The translations under genes were made by a program, and so were the position numbers. A stretch of DNA of 21,906 nucleotides from assembly GCA_046757665.1 (NCBI GenBank), contig JBHHYO010000048.1, forward strand, positions 1-21,906, in the 5' to 3' direction. The notes below the pieces were generated by a model that saw nothing but the letters and a program-made list of their open reading frames with translations, did no database searches and was not told the DNA's origin. This DNA comes from Nitrospinales bacterium. GTDB lineage: Bacteria > Nitrospinota > Nitrospinia > Nitrospinales > JAJDAT01. This document shows positions 381 to 11,052 of this stretch, piece by piece; the first letter of the stretch is position 1, and every line of letters starts with the position of its first letter.

Positions 381-1814
381 TCAAGCGCTGAGCGCTTCCT
401 GGGAGGGTTCCAGTTTGGGCAGGCTGACTTTGAATTTTGTTCCCTTCCCCAATTGGCTTTCCACGTCAATCCGACCTCCGTGAGCTTTCACAATGTACCG
501 GGAAATGCTCAAGCCCAGCCCACTGCCGCCCTCGGACCGGGAGCGGGCCTTGTCCACACGATAAAAGCGGTTGAAAATGTTGGGCAGGTTTTCCTCGGAA
601 ATGCCGATGCCGGTATCCTCCACGGTCAGCAAGGCGGCATCCTCCTTGTTTTGCAGGGAAACTTTTATTCGCCCCCCCGGCGGGGTGTATTTGATGCCGT
701 TGTGCAGAATGTTCCAGATCATCTGCCGCAGGCGGACGGCATCGCCATTGATCCGCGCCGGCTCCAGATAGGCGATCACGATTTCTATATTTTTTTCGTC
801 TGCCAGCACTTCCGCGTGTTTGCAAACCTCTTCAATAATCGTTCCCAGGTCCATCGGTTTGCAATCGAACCGAATCTTATCCTCGTCCGCCTTGGAGAGC
901 GCAAACAAATCCTCCAGAACCTTGGACATGTAATTAATTTCTTCCAGGTTGCTGGACAACACCTCCTGATATTCGTTGAGTGTGCGGACCTTATTGAGAG
1001 TCAACTCGCTTTGTCCCTTCAAAACGGTCAAGGGCGTGCGTAATTCATGGGACGCATCGCTACTAAACTGCCGCATGTGAACGAACGAGTTTTCCAGCCG
1101 CTCCAACATGTCGTTGAAGGTAACGACCAGCTTGCCGATCTCGTCCTGAGCCGGGGGCACGGGGATGCGTTTGCTCAGGTCGTGACCGCTACTGATGTCC
1201 CGAGCGGTTTGCGTTATTTTGGAAACGGGATTCAAGGCGCGCCGGGCCATGAAAAAACCCACCAGGGTGGCCACGCCCAGAATGGCCGGGATGGCCATAT
1301 ACAGAAAAATTTTCAGGCTTTTCATGGTTTCATTAACGGCCTGAAGGGAAGTGCCCACCTGAACCAGGTTCACCAGTTTCCCGTTGCGCCGGATGGGCAT
1401 GGTGAGCACCCGAATGGGGTGGTCGTCCGACAACATGAAAGTTTCAAACGTATCTTCTCCCTTGACCGCCCGGGAGTAAGCCTCCTGGGTCAGGGGAAAC
1501 TGGGAGCCGTCGATATTTTTGGAGCGCGAACCCACGTTGCCGGAGCCGTCATAAATCCGGAAAAACTTGTTCATGTTGCCGTGCCCCATGAACTGGTTCA
1601 AAAAATATTCCAGCCCCGGCAAGGGCGCCGCCGCGTATTTCATCAGGGCGGTTTTCGCCACCACCCGCGCCGAAACTTTCAGCGAGTTGTCCACGCCTTC
1701 ATACAGTTGGTTGGATAAAAAGAAGTGCAGAAGAAAGCTGAAAAGGATCAGGATGATGGCCAGAAGGGCCACGTACCAGGCGGTCAATTTCAATCGTATT
1801 GAGGTAAAGCTCAT
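381..1814 (-). CDS. Sensor histidine kinase, heavy-metal (CusS/CzcS/HprS-like) family: TM-periplasmic-TM-HAMP-HisKA-HATPase
   Basis: Two TM helices, HAMP (…DEIGKLVVTFNDMLERLE), H-box FSSDASHELRTPL, N-box NILHNGIKY, G1 DTGIGI, F-box IFNRFYR, G2 GSGLGLSI. Confidence 0.93.
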   Translation of the reverse strand: MSFTSIRLKLTAWYVALLAIILILFSFLLHFFLSNQLYEGVDNSLKVSARVVAKTALMKYAAAPLPGLEYFLNQFMGHGNMNKFFRIYDGSGNVGSRSKNIDGSQFPLTQEAYSRAVKGEDTFETFMLSDDHPIRVLTMPIRRNGKLVNLVQVGTSLQAVNETMKSLKIFLYMAIPAILGVATLVGFFMARRALNPVSKITQTARDISSGHDLSKRIPVPPAQDEIGKLVVTFNDMLERLENSFVHMRQFSSDASHELRTPLTVLKGQSELTLNKVRTLNEYQEVLSSNLEEINYMSKVLEDLFALSKADEDKIRFDCKPMDLGTIIEEVCKHAEVLADEKNIEIVIAYLEPARINGDAVRLRQMIWNILHNGIKYTPPGGRIKVSLQNKEDAALLTVEDTGIGISEENLPNIFNRFYRVDKARSRSEGGSGLGLSISRYIVKAHGGRIDVESQLGKGTKFKVSLPKLEPSQEALSA

Positions 1815-1817
1815 GGG

Positions 1818-2486
1818 TCACTCCTTCATCACATAACCCACGCCCCGCAACGTGTGCAACAGTTTTTTGGGATGGTTCTTGTCGATTTTTTTCCGCAGAT
1901 GATTGATATAGACATCGATGACATTGGTAAACGTGTCGAAGTTGTAGTCCCAGACATGCTCGGCGATCATGGTTCGGGTCAACACCTTTTCCCGGTTCCG
2001 CATGAAGTATTCCAGCAGACTGTACTCTTTTCCGGTAAGTTCGATTTCCTCTCCGTCACGCTTGACTTTATGACTGAGGAGGTCGAGGGTCAAGTCGGCG
2101 ATTTGCAGAACGGTCTGGCGCTCGGTTTTTCCTCTTCGCAACAACACCCGCGTGCGGGCCAGCAATTCGGAAAACGCGAACGGCTTGGTCAAATAATCAT
2201 CCGCGCCCTTGTTCAGCCCTCTTACCCGGTCTTCCACGGAATCCTTGGCGGTGAGGAGAAGAATGGGGGTGTCGATTTTATCTTCGCGCAACCGGGTCAG
2301 CACCTCCAGGCCATCCATCTTGGGAAGCATGATGTCCAGAATAATCAAGTCGTAGAGATTTTCGCGCGCCAGGTATAATCCTTCCTCGCCGTCGTAAGCG
2401 ACATCGACGGCGTAGGTTTCCTCCTCCAGGCCCTTTTTGATAAATCCGGCGACTTTTTTTTCATCCTCGATAATCAAGATTCGCAT
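1818..2486 (-). CDS. OmpR-family response regulator (CusR/CzcR-like)
   Basis: Receiver domain (MRILIIEDE, LDIMLP, GADDYLTKPF) plus winged helix (VWDYNFDTFTNVIDVYINHLRKKID, TLRGVGY); 3 nt from the kinase gene. Confidence 0.95.
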   Translation of the reverse strand: MRILIIEDEKKVAGFIKKGLEEETYAVDVAYDGEEGLYLARENLYDLIILDIMLPKMDGLEVLTRLREDKIDTPILLLTAKDSVEDRVRGLNKGADDYLTKPFAFSELLARTRVLLRRGKTERQTVLQIADLTLDLLSHKVKRDGEEIELTGKEYSLLEYFMRNREKVLTRTMIAEHVWDYNFDTFTNVIDVYINHLRKKIDKNHPKKLLHTLRGVGYVMKE

Positions 2487-2693
2487 TTACGCATCCCACT
2501 TCTTTTGGACTTTATGCAACTCAATTTCCGACTGAAGCATTTTCATGTGCTTTTCGCAATCCTTCATTATGGCGGAATACATGGCCCGGCAACTTTCATC
2601 CCTGGCGTCGATCATGGCCTGCTTGCAAATCCCCGCCGCCTCCTCCACGGATTTCAAGGCGACCAGCAAATTTTCATTAAATTTTTCAGCCAT
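2487..2693 (-). CDS. 68-aa helical-hairpin protein resembling half of a ferritin-like four-helix bundle, Cys/Met-rich
   Basis: Amphipathic helix-turn-helix pattern 'EAAGICKQAMIDARDESCRAMYSAIMKDCEKHMKML' follows the rubrerythrin/EncFtn spacing. Its TAA stop directly abuts the ATG of the response regulator. Confidence 0.75.
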   Translation of the reverse strand: MAEKFNENLLVALKSVEEAAGICKQAMIDARDESCRAMYSAIMKDCEKHMKMLQSEIELHKVQKKWDA

Positions 2694-2755: not shown

Positions 2756-3013
2756 TTATTCTCTTTCTTCCTTTTCCCACTGCTTGCGAAAGAGAATTTT
2801 GACCATCACGATACCCAGGGCCATCCCGAAATAAGGAAGAGCATTTATTAATTCCACCAGAAAACGTCCGAAATCTCCATAATTTTTTGCCAGGCCGCCA
2901 AGCAAGGGATTGCCGGACTTTTCCACCCAGTAAAAAATGAGGTTGATGACCGTTCCGCAAATAAAACCGATGAAAGCGCCAAACCCGTAGTAAACAATTT
3001 TAAGTCCATCCAC
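2756..3013 (-). CDS. Small membrane protein with two TM segments, unknown function
   Basis: Two hydrophobic Gly-rich helices and a charged C-tail (RKQWEKEERE). GTG start; start position uncertain. Confidence 0.7.
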   Translation of the reverse strand: MDGLKIVYYGFGAFIGFICGTVINLIFYWVEKSGNPLLGGLAKNYGDFGRFLVELINALPYFGMALGIVMVKILFRKQWEKEERE

Positions 3014-3110: not shown

Positions 3111-3851
3111 ATGCGGCTGGAAAACAAAACAGCGATCATCACCGGCGGGGCAACGGGGATCGGTTTTGCCTGCGCGCAACTGTTTTGCCGGGAAGGAGCG
3201 CGGGTGGTCTTGTTCGGCAGACGCCAGGACAGGCTCGACGAGGCGGTGGGAACTATCGGTGAAAAGGCCCTGGCCGTAGCGGGCGACATCACCCGCGAAG
3301 AGGATATCGTCCGCCTGGTTGACACCGCGCTGGCCCGTCTGGACCGGCTCGATATTCTGGTCAACAATGCCGGGGCCTTCGGCGGCGCGCCCCTCCACGA
3401 AATGGAGGACGAGCATTGGGACAACATGTTCGCCGTTAATTTGCGCGGCGTGTTCCGATTGACCCGGCGAGTGATTCCTTCCATGCGGAAACAAAAATCC
3501 GGGTCAATCGTTCATATCAGTTCCATCCTGGGAATGATCGCCGTTCCGCAAACGGCGGCCTACAATGCTTCCAAGGGAGCCTTGATCCAGCTCAGCCGCT
3601 CCATCGCCGCGGAATATGGCGCGGACGGCATCCGGTCCAACGCAGTCTGTCCGGGACTCATCGCCACGGAAATGACCGCCGACCTGATGAGCGACAAGAA
3701 ACTCATGGAAGAATGGCGCAAGGGCTATCCCATCGGCCGGTTTGGCGAACCGGAGGACGTGGCACGGGCCTGTCTTTATCTGGCCAGCGACGAGTCTTCC
3801 TTCGTAACGGGAGCCGTTCTCCCGGTGGACGGCGGATACACCGCGCTCTAG
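3111..3851 (+). CDS. Classical short-chain dehydrogenase/reductase (FabG-like SDR)
   Basis: TGGATGIG, NNAG, catalytic YNASK, C-terminal VDGGY. Basic 'GRR' after beta-2 suggests NADP(H). Confidence 0.95.
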   Translation: MRLENKTAIITGGATGIGFACAQLFCREGARVVLFGRRQDRLDEAVGTIGEKALAVAGDITREEDIVRLVDTALARLDRLDILVNNAGAFGGAPLHEMEDEHWDNMFAVNLRGVFRLTRRVIPSMRKQKSGSIVHISSILGMIAVPQTAAYNASKGALIQLSRSIAAEYGADGIRSNAVCPGLIATEMTADLMSDKKLMEEWRKGYPIGRFGEPEDVARACLYLASDESSFVTGAVLPVDGGYTAL

Positions 3852-5487: not shown

Positions 5488-6051
5488 ATGTCGCACACTC
5501 AATGGAAAACGATCATTCATATTTGTCTTGTTACCTTTGCGGTTGTTTTCGGGTCCGCGGTAAGGTATAGTTCCACGGCTTTCGCCGGAGAAACCAGCGC
5601 CCCTGCTTCACCGGCGGGGAAAATATCCCAGGACAAACGCTTTATCGACAATGGCGACAATACCATCACCGACACCAAAACGGGGCTCATGTGGATGAAG
5701 CAGGATTCCTTTTTGCATACCGGGCATTGGAAAAACTGGTTCCAGGCGCAGGACTACATCGACCAGTTAAATGAAAAGGGATTCGCGAATTATCATGACT
5801 GGGAAGCGCCCACCGTGGAGGAGTTGAAGACCTTGTATGAACCGGAGAAACTCAACAGCTCCCAGCTGGGCCATGAAATGAAAATACATATCGACCCCCT
5901 GTTTGCAAAGAAAGGATCGGGGTCTTCCTGGTCGGGCCAGGCCAACGGCGTTTTCCAGGCTTTCGGAGTTGTTTTCAATGACGGCAAAAGATTCTCCCAT
6001 CCGAAGCGCTCCAAGGCCCGGAAATCAATTCGCGCCGTGCGCCATCCCTAA
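5488..6051 (+). CDS. Exported Lcl C-terminal domain (DUF1566) protein
   Basis: Signal peptide (…AFA), RFIDNGDNTITDTKTGLMW, 'DWEAPTVEELKTL', C-terminal 'IRAVR'. Confidence 0.85.
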   Translation: MSHTQWKTIIHICLVTFAVVFGSAVRYSSTAFAGETSAPASPAGKISQDKRFIDNGDNTITDTKTGLMWMKQDSFLHTGHWKNWFQAQDYIDQLNEKGFANYHDWEAPTVEELKTLYEPEKLNSSQLGHEMKIHIDPLFAKKGSGSSWSGQANGVFQAFGVVFNDGKRFSHPKRSKARKSIRAVRHP

Positions 6052-8512: not shown

Positions 8513-8980
8513 ATGGGAACCCAGCCCCAGGAAGGAAAAAAAGCGCCTGATTTTTCAGCCACGGATCAAAACGGCAAAACGGTGAAACTGAGCGCGTTCA
8601 GAGGAAAAAAAAACGTCGTTCTGTATTTTTACCCGAAAGACATGACGCCGGGTTGCACCACCGAGGCCTGCGATTTCCGCGACCATTTCAAACGATTTAA
8701 AAACACGGTCATCCTGGGGGTCAGCGCCGACCCTCCCGAAAGGCACACGAAGTTCATCGAGAAATACGATTTGCCTTTTACCCTGATCAGCGATCCGGAC
8801 AAAAAGACAATCAAGGCCTATGGCGTGTGGCAGGAAAAAAAACTTTACGGCAAAACATTCATGGGTATTGTGCGATCCACTTTTATCATCGACAAGCAAG
8901 GCGTCCTGCGCAAGGTTTTTCCCAAGGTGAAAGTGAAAGGCCACGTGGAAGAGGTTTTGCAAACGCTTGCTGAACTGTAA
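8513..8980 (+). CDS. bcp: Peroxiredoxin BCP/PrxQ (thioredoxin-dependent thiol peroxidase)
   Basis: VLYFYPKDMTPGCTTEACDFRD (peroxidatic and resolving CxxxxC), RSTFIIDKQG. Confidence 0.96.
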   Translation: MGTQPQEGKKAPDFSATDQNGKTVKLSAFRGKKNVVLYFYPKDMTPGCTTEACDFRDHFKRFKNTVILGVSADPPERHTKFIEKYDLPFTLISDPDKKTIKAYGVWQEKKLYGKTFMGIVRSTFIIDKQGVLRKVFPKVKVKGHVEEVLQTLAEL

Positions 8981-10443: not shown

Positions 10444-11052
10444 CTATCGTTTTCTTAATATTCCCAGCCATTCCCTGCCCCGGCGCCGCTCGATGGAGTG
10501 CGGAGTTTTTTCCAGATGCTCGATGGCAAAATGCCGGGAGAACAAACGCGGGATGTCCGCATACCCGGTATGGTACGGCGGCCCGCCTTCCTCGTTGGTC
10601 TCGTAAAAAAGAGCCACCAGCAGACCGTTTGCCTGCAGGAGCCGATGAACCGTTTCGACATAAAGCGCACGCGCCGAAGGCGCAATGGCGCAAAAAAACG
10701 TCTGCTCCAGCACCAGGTCATAACAACTGTCGTGAGCGGAGTCCAGTTCAAAAAAATCCGCCAACAGCACGTTGGCGCGCAACCCCTTTTGCGACAGCGC
10801 GTCGGTCAAACAGGTCACGGCGCCCGGCGAGAAATCCACGCCGGTCACGTCAAAACCCCGTTCGGCGAAGAAGACCACCTCATGGCCGCGACCGCAACCC
10901 GGGACTATGGTTTTGCCCGGCCGCAATTTTTTTTCCCGCCAAAGACGCGCGAACGGTGGAGAAACCTCGCCCAAGTCCCATCGGAGATCGCCTGTATCGT
11001 AATGTTTTTGCCAATCCTGCCGGCCGTACCCGCCGGTCAATTCGCTCGTCAT
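10444..11052 (-). CDS. SAM-dependent methyltransferase, TPMT / halide-thiol methyltransferase (HOL/HTMT-like)
   Basis: WDLG…SP, motif I VPGCGRGHEV, 'DFF', EQTFFCAI, GGPPY, C-terminal HSIERRRGRE. Confidence 0.88.
   Translation of the reverse strand: MTSELTGGYGRQDWQKHYDTGDLRWDLGEVSPPFARLWREKKLRPGKTIVPGCGRGHEVVFFAERGFDVTGVDFSPGAVTCLTDALSQKGLRANVLLADFFELDSAHDSCYDLVLEQTFFCAIAPSARALYVETVHRLLQANGLLVALFYETNEEGGPPYHTGYADIPRLFSRHFAIEHLEKTPHSIERRRGREWLGILRKR

Follow-up and report, generated by a model that had tools for sequence, protein, structure and literature searches.

A ferritin-like helical hairpin with a putative thiolate/imidazole site precedes a heavy-metal-class two-component system in Nitrospinales

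What does a protein of only 68 residues, three of them cysteines, do immediately ahead of a response regulator and its histidine kinase? This arrangement occurs in the window analysed here, a stretch of 21,906 nucleotides (nt) from a Nitrospinales bacterium of the phylum Nitrospinota (contig JBHHYO010000048.1 of assembly GCA_046757665.1), where a small open reading frame (ORF), a regulator and a kinase of the heavy-metal class follow one another on the minus strand. A preliminary description of the locus, made from the sequence alone, had read the small protein as a ferritin-like helix pair whose iron site had become a Cu(I)/thiol-redox site, serving a CusRS-like two-component system as a cytoplasmic buffer or modulator. 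Our analysis suggests classing the protein as a half-domain of the ferritin superfamily that has a putative thiolate/imidazole site and was recruited to a heavy-metal-class sensor operon. We favour the reading that it is a metal- or thiol-binding dimer working with the two-component system, to which we assign a probability of about 0.45. The operon and the spacer in front of it are laid out as follows:

2487 to 2693, minus strand: 68-residue putative half-ferritin-like hairpin protein (P0001), most likely the first cistron; ORF with ATG start and TAA stop
1818 to 2486, minus strand: OmpR-family response regulator of the heavy-metal (CopR/CusR/CzcR) subfamily, 222 residues; Response_reg and Trans_reg_C domains, TIGR01387
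381 to 1814, minus strand: membrane histidine kinase of the heavy-metal sensor subfamily, 477 residues; Pfam domains, TIGR01386
2694 to 2755, minus strand: 62-nt spacer 5' of the small gene, likely its promoter or 5' untranslated region

The ATG of the regulator (2484-2486) comes immediately after the TAA of the small ORF, with a gap of 0 nt, and 3 nt separate the TGA of the regulator (1818-1820) from the ATG of the kinase (1812-1814). Translation of the small ORF gives C23, C35, C46, H49 and H60, internal methionines at 27, 38, 43, 50 and 52, and the motifs V16-x6-C23 and C46-x-x-H49. The ORFs and their translation bear out the preliminary description in its coordinates, gaps, residue positions and motifs; its wording 'fused head-to-tail' is right in that the genes abut, but they are not fused. 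Because the N-terminus has no hydrophobic stretch, we take the small protein to be cytoplasmic.

The ORF behaves as a gene. Matches were found in 98 of 120 Nitrospinota genomes and in 54 of the 57 high-quality ones, almost always one per genome, as in the genome of the window itself. Orthologous genes differ from each other 24873, 11798 and 66691 times at first, second and third codon positions, respectively, and the differing codon pairs are synonymous in 45404 cases and non-synonymous in 31306. This third-position excess indicates a translated gene under purifying selection, and we regard it as virtually certain that the ORF encodes a real protein. Moreover, a near-universal, single-copy gene linked to a regulator that is 80-87% identical across the order points to a core rather than an accessory function.

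The family to which the protein belongs seems confined. A word-indexed search retrieved 119 clusters of proteins of about 68 residues (64-94% identity), for which all organism names supplied are Nitrospinota, Nitrospinae, Nitrospinaceae or Ca. Nitrohelix, and a profile search widened the family to 279 clusters. An exhaustive HMMER scan of 1.84 billion representatives gave just 17 proteins with E <= 0.001, the mark of a small family of narrow range. Members seen outside Nitrospinota come from two metagenome-assembled genomes (MAGs), one of Bdellovibrio and one of Ca. Deferrimicrobiaceae. Database labels on members read 'hypothetical', 'rubrerythrin' or 'DNA-binding ferritin-like protein'. No fused, longer form was present among 8000 scored candidates of 175-2000 residues, which is weak evidence; fused forms of 119-174 residues were covered only by the profile search, whose listed matches reach 85 residues. 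Two 1.6 Mb genomes of one genus (G039 and G040) have two partial matches each; in G039 one covers residues 1-49 and lies at a contig end, and the other covers residues 32-68 in a different place. This probably reflects an assembly break and not a split gene. In the literature searched we found no description of the family or of a ferritin-like hairpin preceding two-component genes, and the small gene goes unmentioned in the excerpts of PMC5029188 that were available.

Where does such a protein come from? Sequence comparison makes it likely that the family descends from a ferritin-like di-iron helix pair and has lost the di-iron site. With the family profile as query, the first match among PDB sequences is the designed di-iron protein 2hz8 (E 2.8e-6), followed by four-helix models of the Due Ferri (DF) type (E 0.003; 1mft 0.0029) and by bacterioferritin and Dps (0.02-0.7). 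Similarly, an hhalign comparison with a 196-residue rubrerythrin-like protein of the same genome gave E 1e-4 and a probability of 57%. In both alignments, columns 16, 23, 46 and 49 hold Glu, Tyr, Glu and His (E48, Y55, E78 and H81 of the rubrerythrin-like protein), where the window protein has V16, C23, C46 and H49; only the His is kept, and the motif E-x6-Y/E-x-x-H is absent. The motif is intact at these columns in a distant homologue, P0134 (99 residues, 37% identical, from the Ca. Deferrimicrobiaceae MAG), which also has the N-terminal, loop and C-terminal motifs of the family. The residue mapping on which the preliminary description had built its ferritin-like helix pair is therefore reproduced by two alignments, and P0134 keeps the residues that this mapping calls for.

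Weaker matches point the same way. Across 37 members, ferritin-type Pfam families recur below threshold (DUF2383 in 31, Coat_F in 27, DUF1657 in 19 and Ferritin in 17); we take Coat_F, DUF2383 and DUF1657 to be families of the ferritin clan. For the small protein the scores are 17.6 bits for Coat_F (cut-off 25.7), 16.2 for DUF2383 (30.8) and 16.0 for DUF1657 (27.7), and the NCBIfam model bfr matches at E 0.042, below its cut-off. Its atlas neighbours, PA2169/DUF2383 at 0.88 and rubrerythrin clusters of 64-65 residues at 0.85-0.86, stay under 0.9 and are leads only. The spacing of 23 residues between columns 23 and 46 is the same as that of Tyr39 and Glu62 in EncFtn, for which the available part of PMC5012862 describes a ferroxidase centre of Glu32, Glu62, His65 and Tyr39 drawn from two chains. 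A role as encapsulin cargo was rejected, as no PF04454 shell gene was found in the genome, which is 97.6% complete; in the preliminary description, too, no targeting tail was visible. The tail of the small protein carries a conserved H-K-x-x-x-K-W-D motif, which is unlike known encapsulin targeting peptides.

Structure prediction is consistent with the proposed four-helix bundle. On an alignment of 37 rows (A2), AlphaFold2 predicts a hairpin of helices 2-29 and 33-62 with a mean predicted local distance difference test (pLDDT) of 93.9. The two-copy prediction scores 0.59 (three runs, 0.58-0.60) against 0.00 for the best control, the runs having at least 88% of contacts in common and a partner pLDDT of 80-81; among proteins of solved structure, 20 of 30 homo-pairs and 1 of 23 single chains come up to the mark set for this score. 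The predicted dimer is an antiparallel four-helix bundle whose two-fold axis crosses helix 1 at residues 16-19 and helix 2 at residues 45-49, and its listed contacts include 19-19', 15-15', 45-45', 45-49', 42-49', 38-53' and 38-56' (primes mark the partner chain). Paired residues of helices 2 and 2' have position numbers that add up to 90-94, and the predicted interface includes residues 34-35, 56 and 59. On these models we consider it probable that the small protein forms a homodimer.

The conserved residues fall into two layers. Among 64 distinct proteins from order-level loci, C23, C35, H49, H60, D32, Y39, D45, E56, M27, M52, R36, N6, N8, K65 and W66 are each found in 64 of 64, M38 in 62 and C46 in 61 (the others have Y, H and X, once each), and M43 and M50 are found in 5 and 4. 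Position 16 is S in 29, A in 20, T in 14 and V in 1. The acidic and amide residues that stand out as invariant are D29/D32/E56 and N6/N8/N31. In four deeper relatives, from loci of the families f5 and f6 and of Bdellovibrio, C46 is present in none (Y, Y, S and M instead), C23 and H49 in three each, and C35 and H60 in all four. C23 is absent from most remote homologues, and in the 37-row alignment, which includes relatives of 31-37% identity, only D32, E56 and H60 are invariant, with C35 in 36 of 37 (missing in P0134). The supposed conservation of the Cys/His set thus holds throughout the order, but C46 stops there and C23 is mostly absent from remote homologues. Likewise, the preliminary description singled out C23, C46 and H49 as the key residues, whereas those conserved family-wide are D32, C35, E56 and H60.

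As the alignments read, the old, family-wide set is F5, N6, N8, D32, S34, C35, Y39, D45, E56, E58, H60 and the tail K-x-x-x-K-W-D. The younger set appears to complete a Cys/His/Met pocket at the former di-iron position; in it C46 is confined to the order, and M27 and M52, which are invariant in the order, are present in the f6 relative too. In the predicted dimer, the old-set residues would cluster at each end, residue 35 of one chain lying opposite residues 56-60' of its partner.

We propose that a helix-loop-helix protein, descended from the ferritin/rubrerythrin/EncFtn di-iron helix pair, pairs into an antiparallel four-helix bundle whose ancestral E-x6-Y and E-x-x-H would have been rebuilt within the order: the terminal Glu into S, A, T or V at position 16, the Tyr into Cys23 and the bridging Glu into Cys46, with His49 and the adjacent Asp45 retained. 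Each chain would then contribute its Cys46, His49 and Cys23 to the pocket on the two-fold axis, with Met27 and Met52, which are invariant, and Met38, which is nearly so, at its flanks, and each His49 would keep its predicted contact with Asp45'. Judged by these residues, the pocket is unsuited to di-iron chemistry and would suit a soft metal, most probably Cu(I), with Zn or an Fe-S cluster also conceivable, or else a disulfide that forms reversibly between the subunits. A second, older site would likely be found at both bundle ends, formed by Asp32/Cys35 of one chain with Glu56/His60 of the other. We put slightly better than even odds on a Cys/His site that binds metal or switches its redox state, and we suggest copper specifically only as a tentative choice.

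Since the small gene would be the first cistron, and its stop codon abuts the next start codon, its product would be made together with the regulator of the only heavy-metal-class system in the genome. Through this product the system, which faces the periplasm, could also receive a metal or thiol-redox input from the cytoplasm, or the product could buffer the same stress. A functional tie of some kind between the small protein and the two-component system seems reasonably likely; direct contact with the kinase or the regulator is doubtful. It is also tempting to speculate about a minimal 'due ferri'-type bundle with thiolates for carboxylates and an axial Cys2His2 site, in its boldest form a CuA-like Cu2(S-Cys)2(His)2 centre with Met27, Met38 and Met52 nearby, acting as a third, cytoplasmic component that passes Cu(I)/thiol-redox status to a CopRS-type system in place of the mostly absent CsoR, although we think this version improbable.

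How tight is the link to the sensor genes? The small gene is followed by regulator and kinase in 30 of 30 loci (L001-L030, the window's own included) and in three more loci from other families of the order (L037-L039). A second set of 68 named loci, taken from GTDB species representatives, contains 64 order-level loci and largely overlaps the first. Of these 64, 63 have room for a downstream gene, and in all 63 that gene is the regulator, in the same orientation; the 64th ends at a contig edge. The junction is kept across four families and about 20 genera, with the following gaps between small gene and regulator in the 63 loci:

0 nt: 52 loci
1 nt: 2 loci
2 nt: 2 loci
4 nt: 1 locus
-4 nt: 1 locus
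45-46 nt: 4 loci
102 nt: 1 locus

Upstream, the spacing is looser. Of the 64 order-level named loci, 62 have a gene for an 85-residue membrane protein there on the same strand; the other two (L047 and L074) have less than 210 nt of contig upstream. Between this gene and the small gene the spacer varies from 39 to 319 nt. Of 70 distinct regions upstream of the small gene, 49 contain an extended -10-like element, TGnTAnAAT, 27-39 nt before the ATG (shuffled sequences: mean 1.3, maximum 6). In the window the upstream region has a near-match to this element and no exact one, and a scan of the window for sigma-70 consensus promoters gave the chance level (2 found, 1.9 expected). Given this element, the tight junction with the regulator and the drifting upstream spacer, the small gene is most likely the first cistron of an operon with regulator and kinase. 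In some loci (for example L013) the GTGATAG of the element is matched by CTATCAC about 18 nt downstream, an inverted repeat that could be an operator or a hairpin in the 5' untranslated region.

The two-component system belongs to the heavy-metal subfamily by score: the regulator reaches 294 bits against TIGR01387 (cut-off 279.2) and the kinase 312.7 bits against TIGR01386 (cut-off 292.55), the only one of the 32 kinase matches in the genome to pass. In the kinase, Pfam domains HAMP, HisKA and HATPase_c follow two transmembrane helices and a periplasmic stretch. Its two cytoplasmic cysteines are incompletely conserved: of 58 orthologues, 41 have C318 and 44 have C331, and a thiol partner on the kinase is accordingly not supported. 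As a separate observation, a column of the ATPase domain near residue 438 is Cys in 52 of 58 orthologues and another residue in the kinase of the window.

CopA-like and CopZ-like genes lie on other contigs of the genome. Of 52 genomes sampled from the order, CsoR (PF02583) was detected in 2; of 9 from other families of the class it was detected in 4, among them both f5 genomes. The genome of the window has none, nor do most complete genomes of the order. This scarcity fits an order that senses cytoplasmic copper or redox state in another way, with the reservation that few evolutionary events are involved and that kin are not independent. Regarding redox stress, Nitrospinota are described in the available excerpts of PMC5029188 as having neither catalase nor superoxide dismutase.

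Several observations weigh against the reading that we favour. The dimer prediction may partly echo the solved DF and EncFtn dimers, and speaks of likeness, not of binding. The proximity of Cys to Cys and of Cys to His in the dimer is read off the contact list and not off coordinates. All Pfam and NCBIfam matches of the small protein fall under the curated cut-offs. Foldseek gave no match at E <= 0.001 in the PDB, its top rows being mostly EncFtn-type chains (3k6c, 5n5e, 7s8t and 6suw) and a DF model, and VIA-align gave EncFtn-like chains a Z of 9-10, equal to that of designed proteins, ESCRT-III, a chemoreceptor and other hairpins; thus the fold alone names no family. On the side of the sensor, the CusR and CusS equivalogs are not reached (NF007346, 254 bits against 420; NF007345, 235 against 423), the HprR equivalog cut-off is likewise missed, and among 29 orthologues of the kinase 24% retain the periplasmic H78 and 55% the periplasmic M76. 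Copper as the signal of the system is therefore only a guess based on its class, and the label 'CusRS-like' survives as far as the heavy-metal subfamily and no further. A Pfam scan of the window proteins found no metal-efflux or copper gene.

The distribution of the family adds to these difficulties. The linkage to two-component genes stops at the boundary of the order. In f5 genomes a queC-like gene overlaps the 3' end of the small gene (L033 4001..4878), and the orthologous regulator (55-57% identical) and kinase are on another contig, with no small ORF ahead; the f6 copy stands alone, with nothing related adjacent; and in the Bdellovibrio MAG a dapF-like gene overlaps the 3' end of the small gene (L111 3027..4131), the names queC-like and dapF-like being readings of the translations and not results of a family scan. 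A family found without sensor genes implies an ancestral function independent of signalling. In addition, neither C46 nor the two-component linkage extends beyond one order, so that their occurring together counts as one evolutionary event. It may also be that the family-wide end site is the true active site. As an observation apart, the family habitually sits as a leading, overlapping cistron.

This last possibility of the end sites is the alternative that survives best, although we hold it to be unlikely. It takes Asp32/Cys35 with Glu56'/His60' as the working site of the whole family, and C23 and C46 as a later, order-specific addition or as structural residues. Such a view would explain why the end-site residues are those invariant, or nearly so for C35, across the 37 sequences while C23, C46 and H49 vary, and the predicted pairing of helices 2 and 2' sets residue 35 opposite residues 56-59'. 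The geometry resembles the inter-subunit Cys...His sites of the CsoR/RcnR/FrmR sensors, and the 25 residues from Cys35 to His60 equal those from C32 to H57 in a CsoR from Nitrospinota, a Cys-to-His spacing likewise found in M. tuberculosis CsoR and in E. coli RcnR and FrmR. However, hhalign gives the comparison with this Nitrospinota CsoR a probability of 0.3% and an E of 0.18, which makes this an analogy and not a membership. PF02583 is absent among the hits of the small protein at E <= 1 and among the 25 of 31 families listed for members, the hairpin has no third helix and no DNA-binding residues, and 35-60' is not among the 25 contact pairs listed.

Slightly less likely again is a protein that acts on the output side only, as a cytoplasmic metal or oxidant buffer or chaperone that heads an autoregulated operon and contacts neither kinase nor regulator. 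The occurrence of the family without two-component genes in f5, f6 and the Bdellovibrio MAG is what one would expect from it, as is a first cistron with its own promoter-like element. Similarly, the kinase offers little to a cytoplasmic partner, having HAMP, HisKA and HATPase only, without a PAS or other cytoplasmic input domain, and keeping its two cytoplasmic cysteines incompletely among orthologues. Yet the genes abut exactly in 52 of the 63 loci and come within 4 nt of each other in 58, a junction tighter than co-regulation requires, and three cysteines in 68 residues make a buffer of low capacity, Csp proteins having 13-18.

The small protein could instead be a metal-free modulator that works by protein-protein contact through its conserved acidic and amide residues, its cysteines being structural. 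Sda, a hairpin that blocks the DHp domain of a kinase, and Spo0E and CheZ, which are helical phosphatases, offer models for this in size and shape; translational coupling to the regulator and the invariant D29/D32/E56 and N6/N8/N31 would suit such a role. We rate it as improbable, given that no Spo0E-like or Sda family is among the Pfam matches listed, that the same residues are conserved in lineages without adjacent two-component genes, and that three invariant Cys with two His and three Met in 68 residues would be unusual if purely structural. As for a housekeeping protein that is merely a passenger of the operon, its position a frozen accident of one ancestor, the overlap with unrelated genes elsewhere (queC-like, dapF-like) and a linkage that arose once among kin sharing gene order speak for it, but a junction held across four families and about 20 genera while the upstream spacer drifts makes it a poor candidate.

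How does the protein compare with known systems? Among natural proteins it resembles EncFtn (e.g. Rru_A0973) and other two-helix half-ferritins. EncFtn is also a two-helix hairpin of similar length that needs a dimer to form its two-fold-axis site and whose ligand columns are in register, with the same Tyr-to-Glu spacing in the available part of PMC5012862. In contrast to EncFtn, two of the three metal ligands are swapped here (Glu for a small residue and Glu for Cys) and Tyr is replaced by Cys; the small protein has no targeting tail and shows no sign of a decamer, and the neighbours of its gene encode a sensor system instead of a shell. The DF proteins (DF1/DFsc) give the best PDB sequence matches and share the plan predicted here, a helix-loop-helix antiparallel homodimer, and the predicted 45-49' contact parallels the Asp-His second-shell pair of DF1. 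However, these are artificial consensus designs, so that the likeness is to the di-iron consensus and does not imply kinship, and their carboxylate ligands are missing here. Rubrerythrin, bacterioferritin and Dps align in register (the hhalign match above, with weak bfr, Ferritin and Rubrerythrin matches), but the small protein corresponds to half of their domain, scores under the cut-offs and could not form a di-iron site with its present residues.

Among copper and metal sensors, Csp proteins embody the same idea, as their four-helix bundle holds Cu(I) by thiolates that point inwards, but there the bundle is a single chain, compared with a two-helix chain with three Cys here, and no Csp family matched the small protein in Pfam at E <= 1. 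The CsoR/RcnR/FrmR sensors share the predicted antiparallel hairpin dimer and the proposed inter-subunit site of a Cys at the start of helix 2 with a His 25 residues on; unlike them, the small protein has only two helices, no DNA-binding motif and no Cys or His at the fourth fingerprint position, and its membership in PF02583 was rejected on these grounds together with the search results given above. Sda, Spo0E and PhoU, finally, are small cytoplasmic helical proteins that tune kinases or regulators, PhoU being a metal-binding helical bundle, but none shows homology among the Pfam matches listed. None of the three is known to be a ferritin-like hairpin or to be translationally coupled ahead of a regulator.

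If the favoured reading is true, a ferritin-type di-iron helix pair would have been rebuilt as a thiolate/imidazole site, the first such case in nature and a counterpart to the DF scaffolds of metalloprotein engineering. The widespread CopRS/CusRS sensors would also gain an accessory protein of a new kind, by which a periplasmic sensor would read the cytoplasm as well. The case concerns Nitrospinota, the main nitrite oxidisers of the ocean, whose metal and redox regulation is, as far as we know, essentially unstudied. Moreover, a soluble protein of 68 residues is easy to make, and the claim is thus cheap to test.

The remaining features of the window that bear on this context are the following:

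2756 to 3013, minus strand: 85-residue small membrane protein with two hydrophobic helices, the conserved upstream neighbour
3111 to 3851, plus strand: short-chain dehydrogenase, divergent conserved neighbour (context only); Pfam adh_short_C2, E 9.8e-75
5488 to 6051, plus strand: 187-residue protein with an Lcl C-terminal domain (PF07603, E 1.7e-19), beside a 558-residue TPR protein
8513 to 8980, plus strand: Bcp-type peroxiredoxin; AhpC-TSA, E 9e-44
10444 to 11052, minus strand: TPMT/TehB-like methyltransferase, E 3e-34

The 85-residue membrane protein falls into no Pfam family, and in the atlas it is surrounded by unnamed clusters found only in Nitrospinota; it may belong to the same module as the small gene. 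The peroxiredoxin and the TPMT/TehB-like methyltransferase are stress-related genes a few kb from the operon, with no evidence that ties them to it. The short-chain dehydrogenase is found on the opposite strand in most order-level loci.

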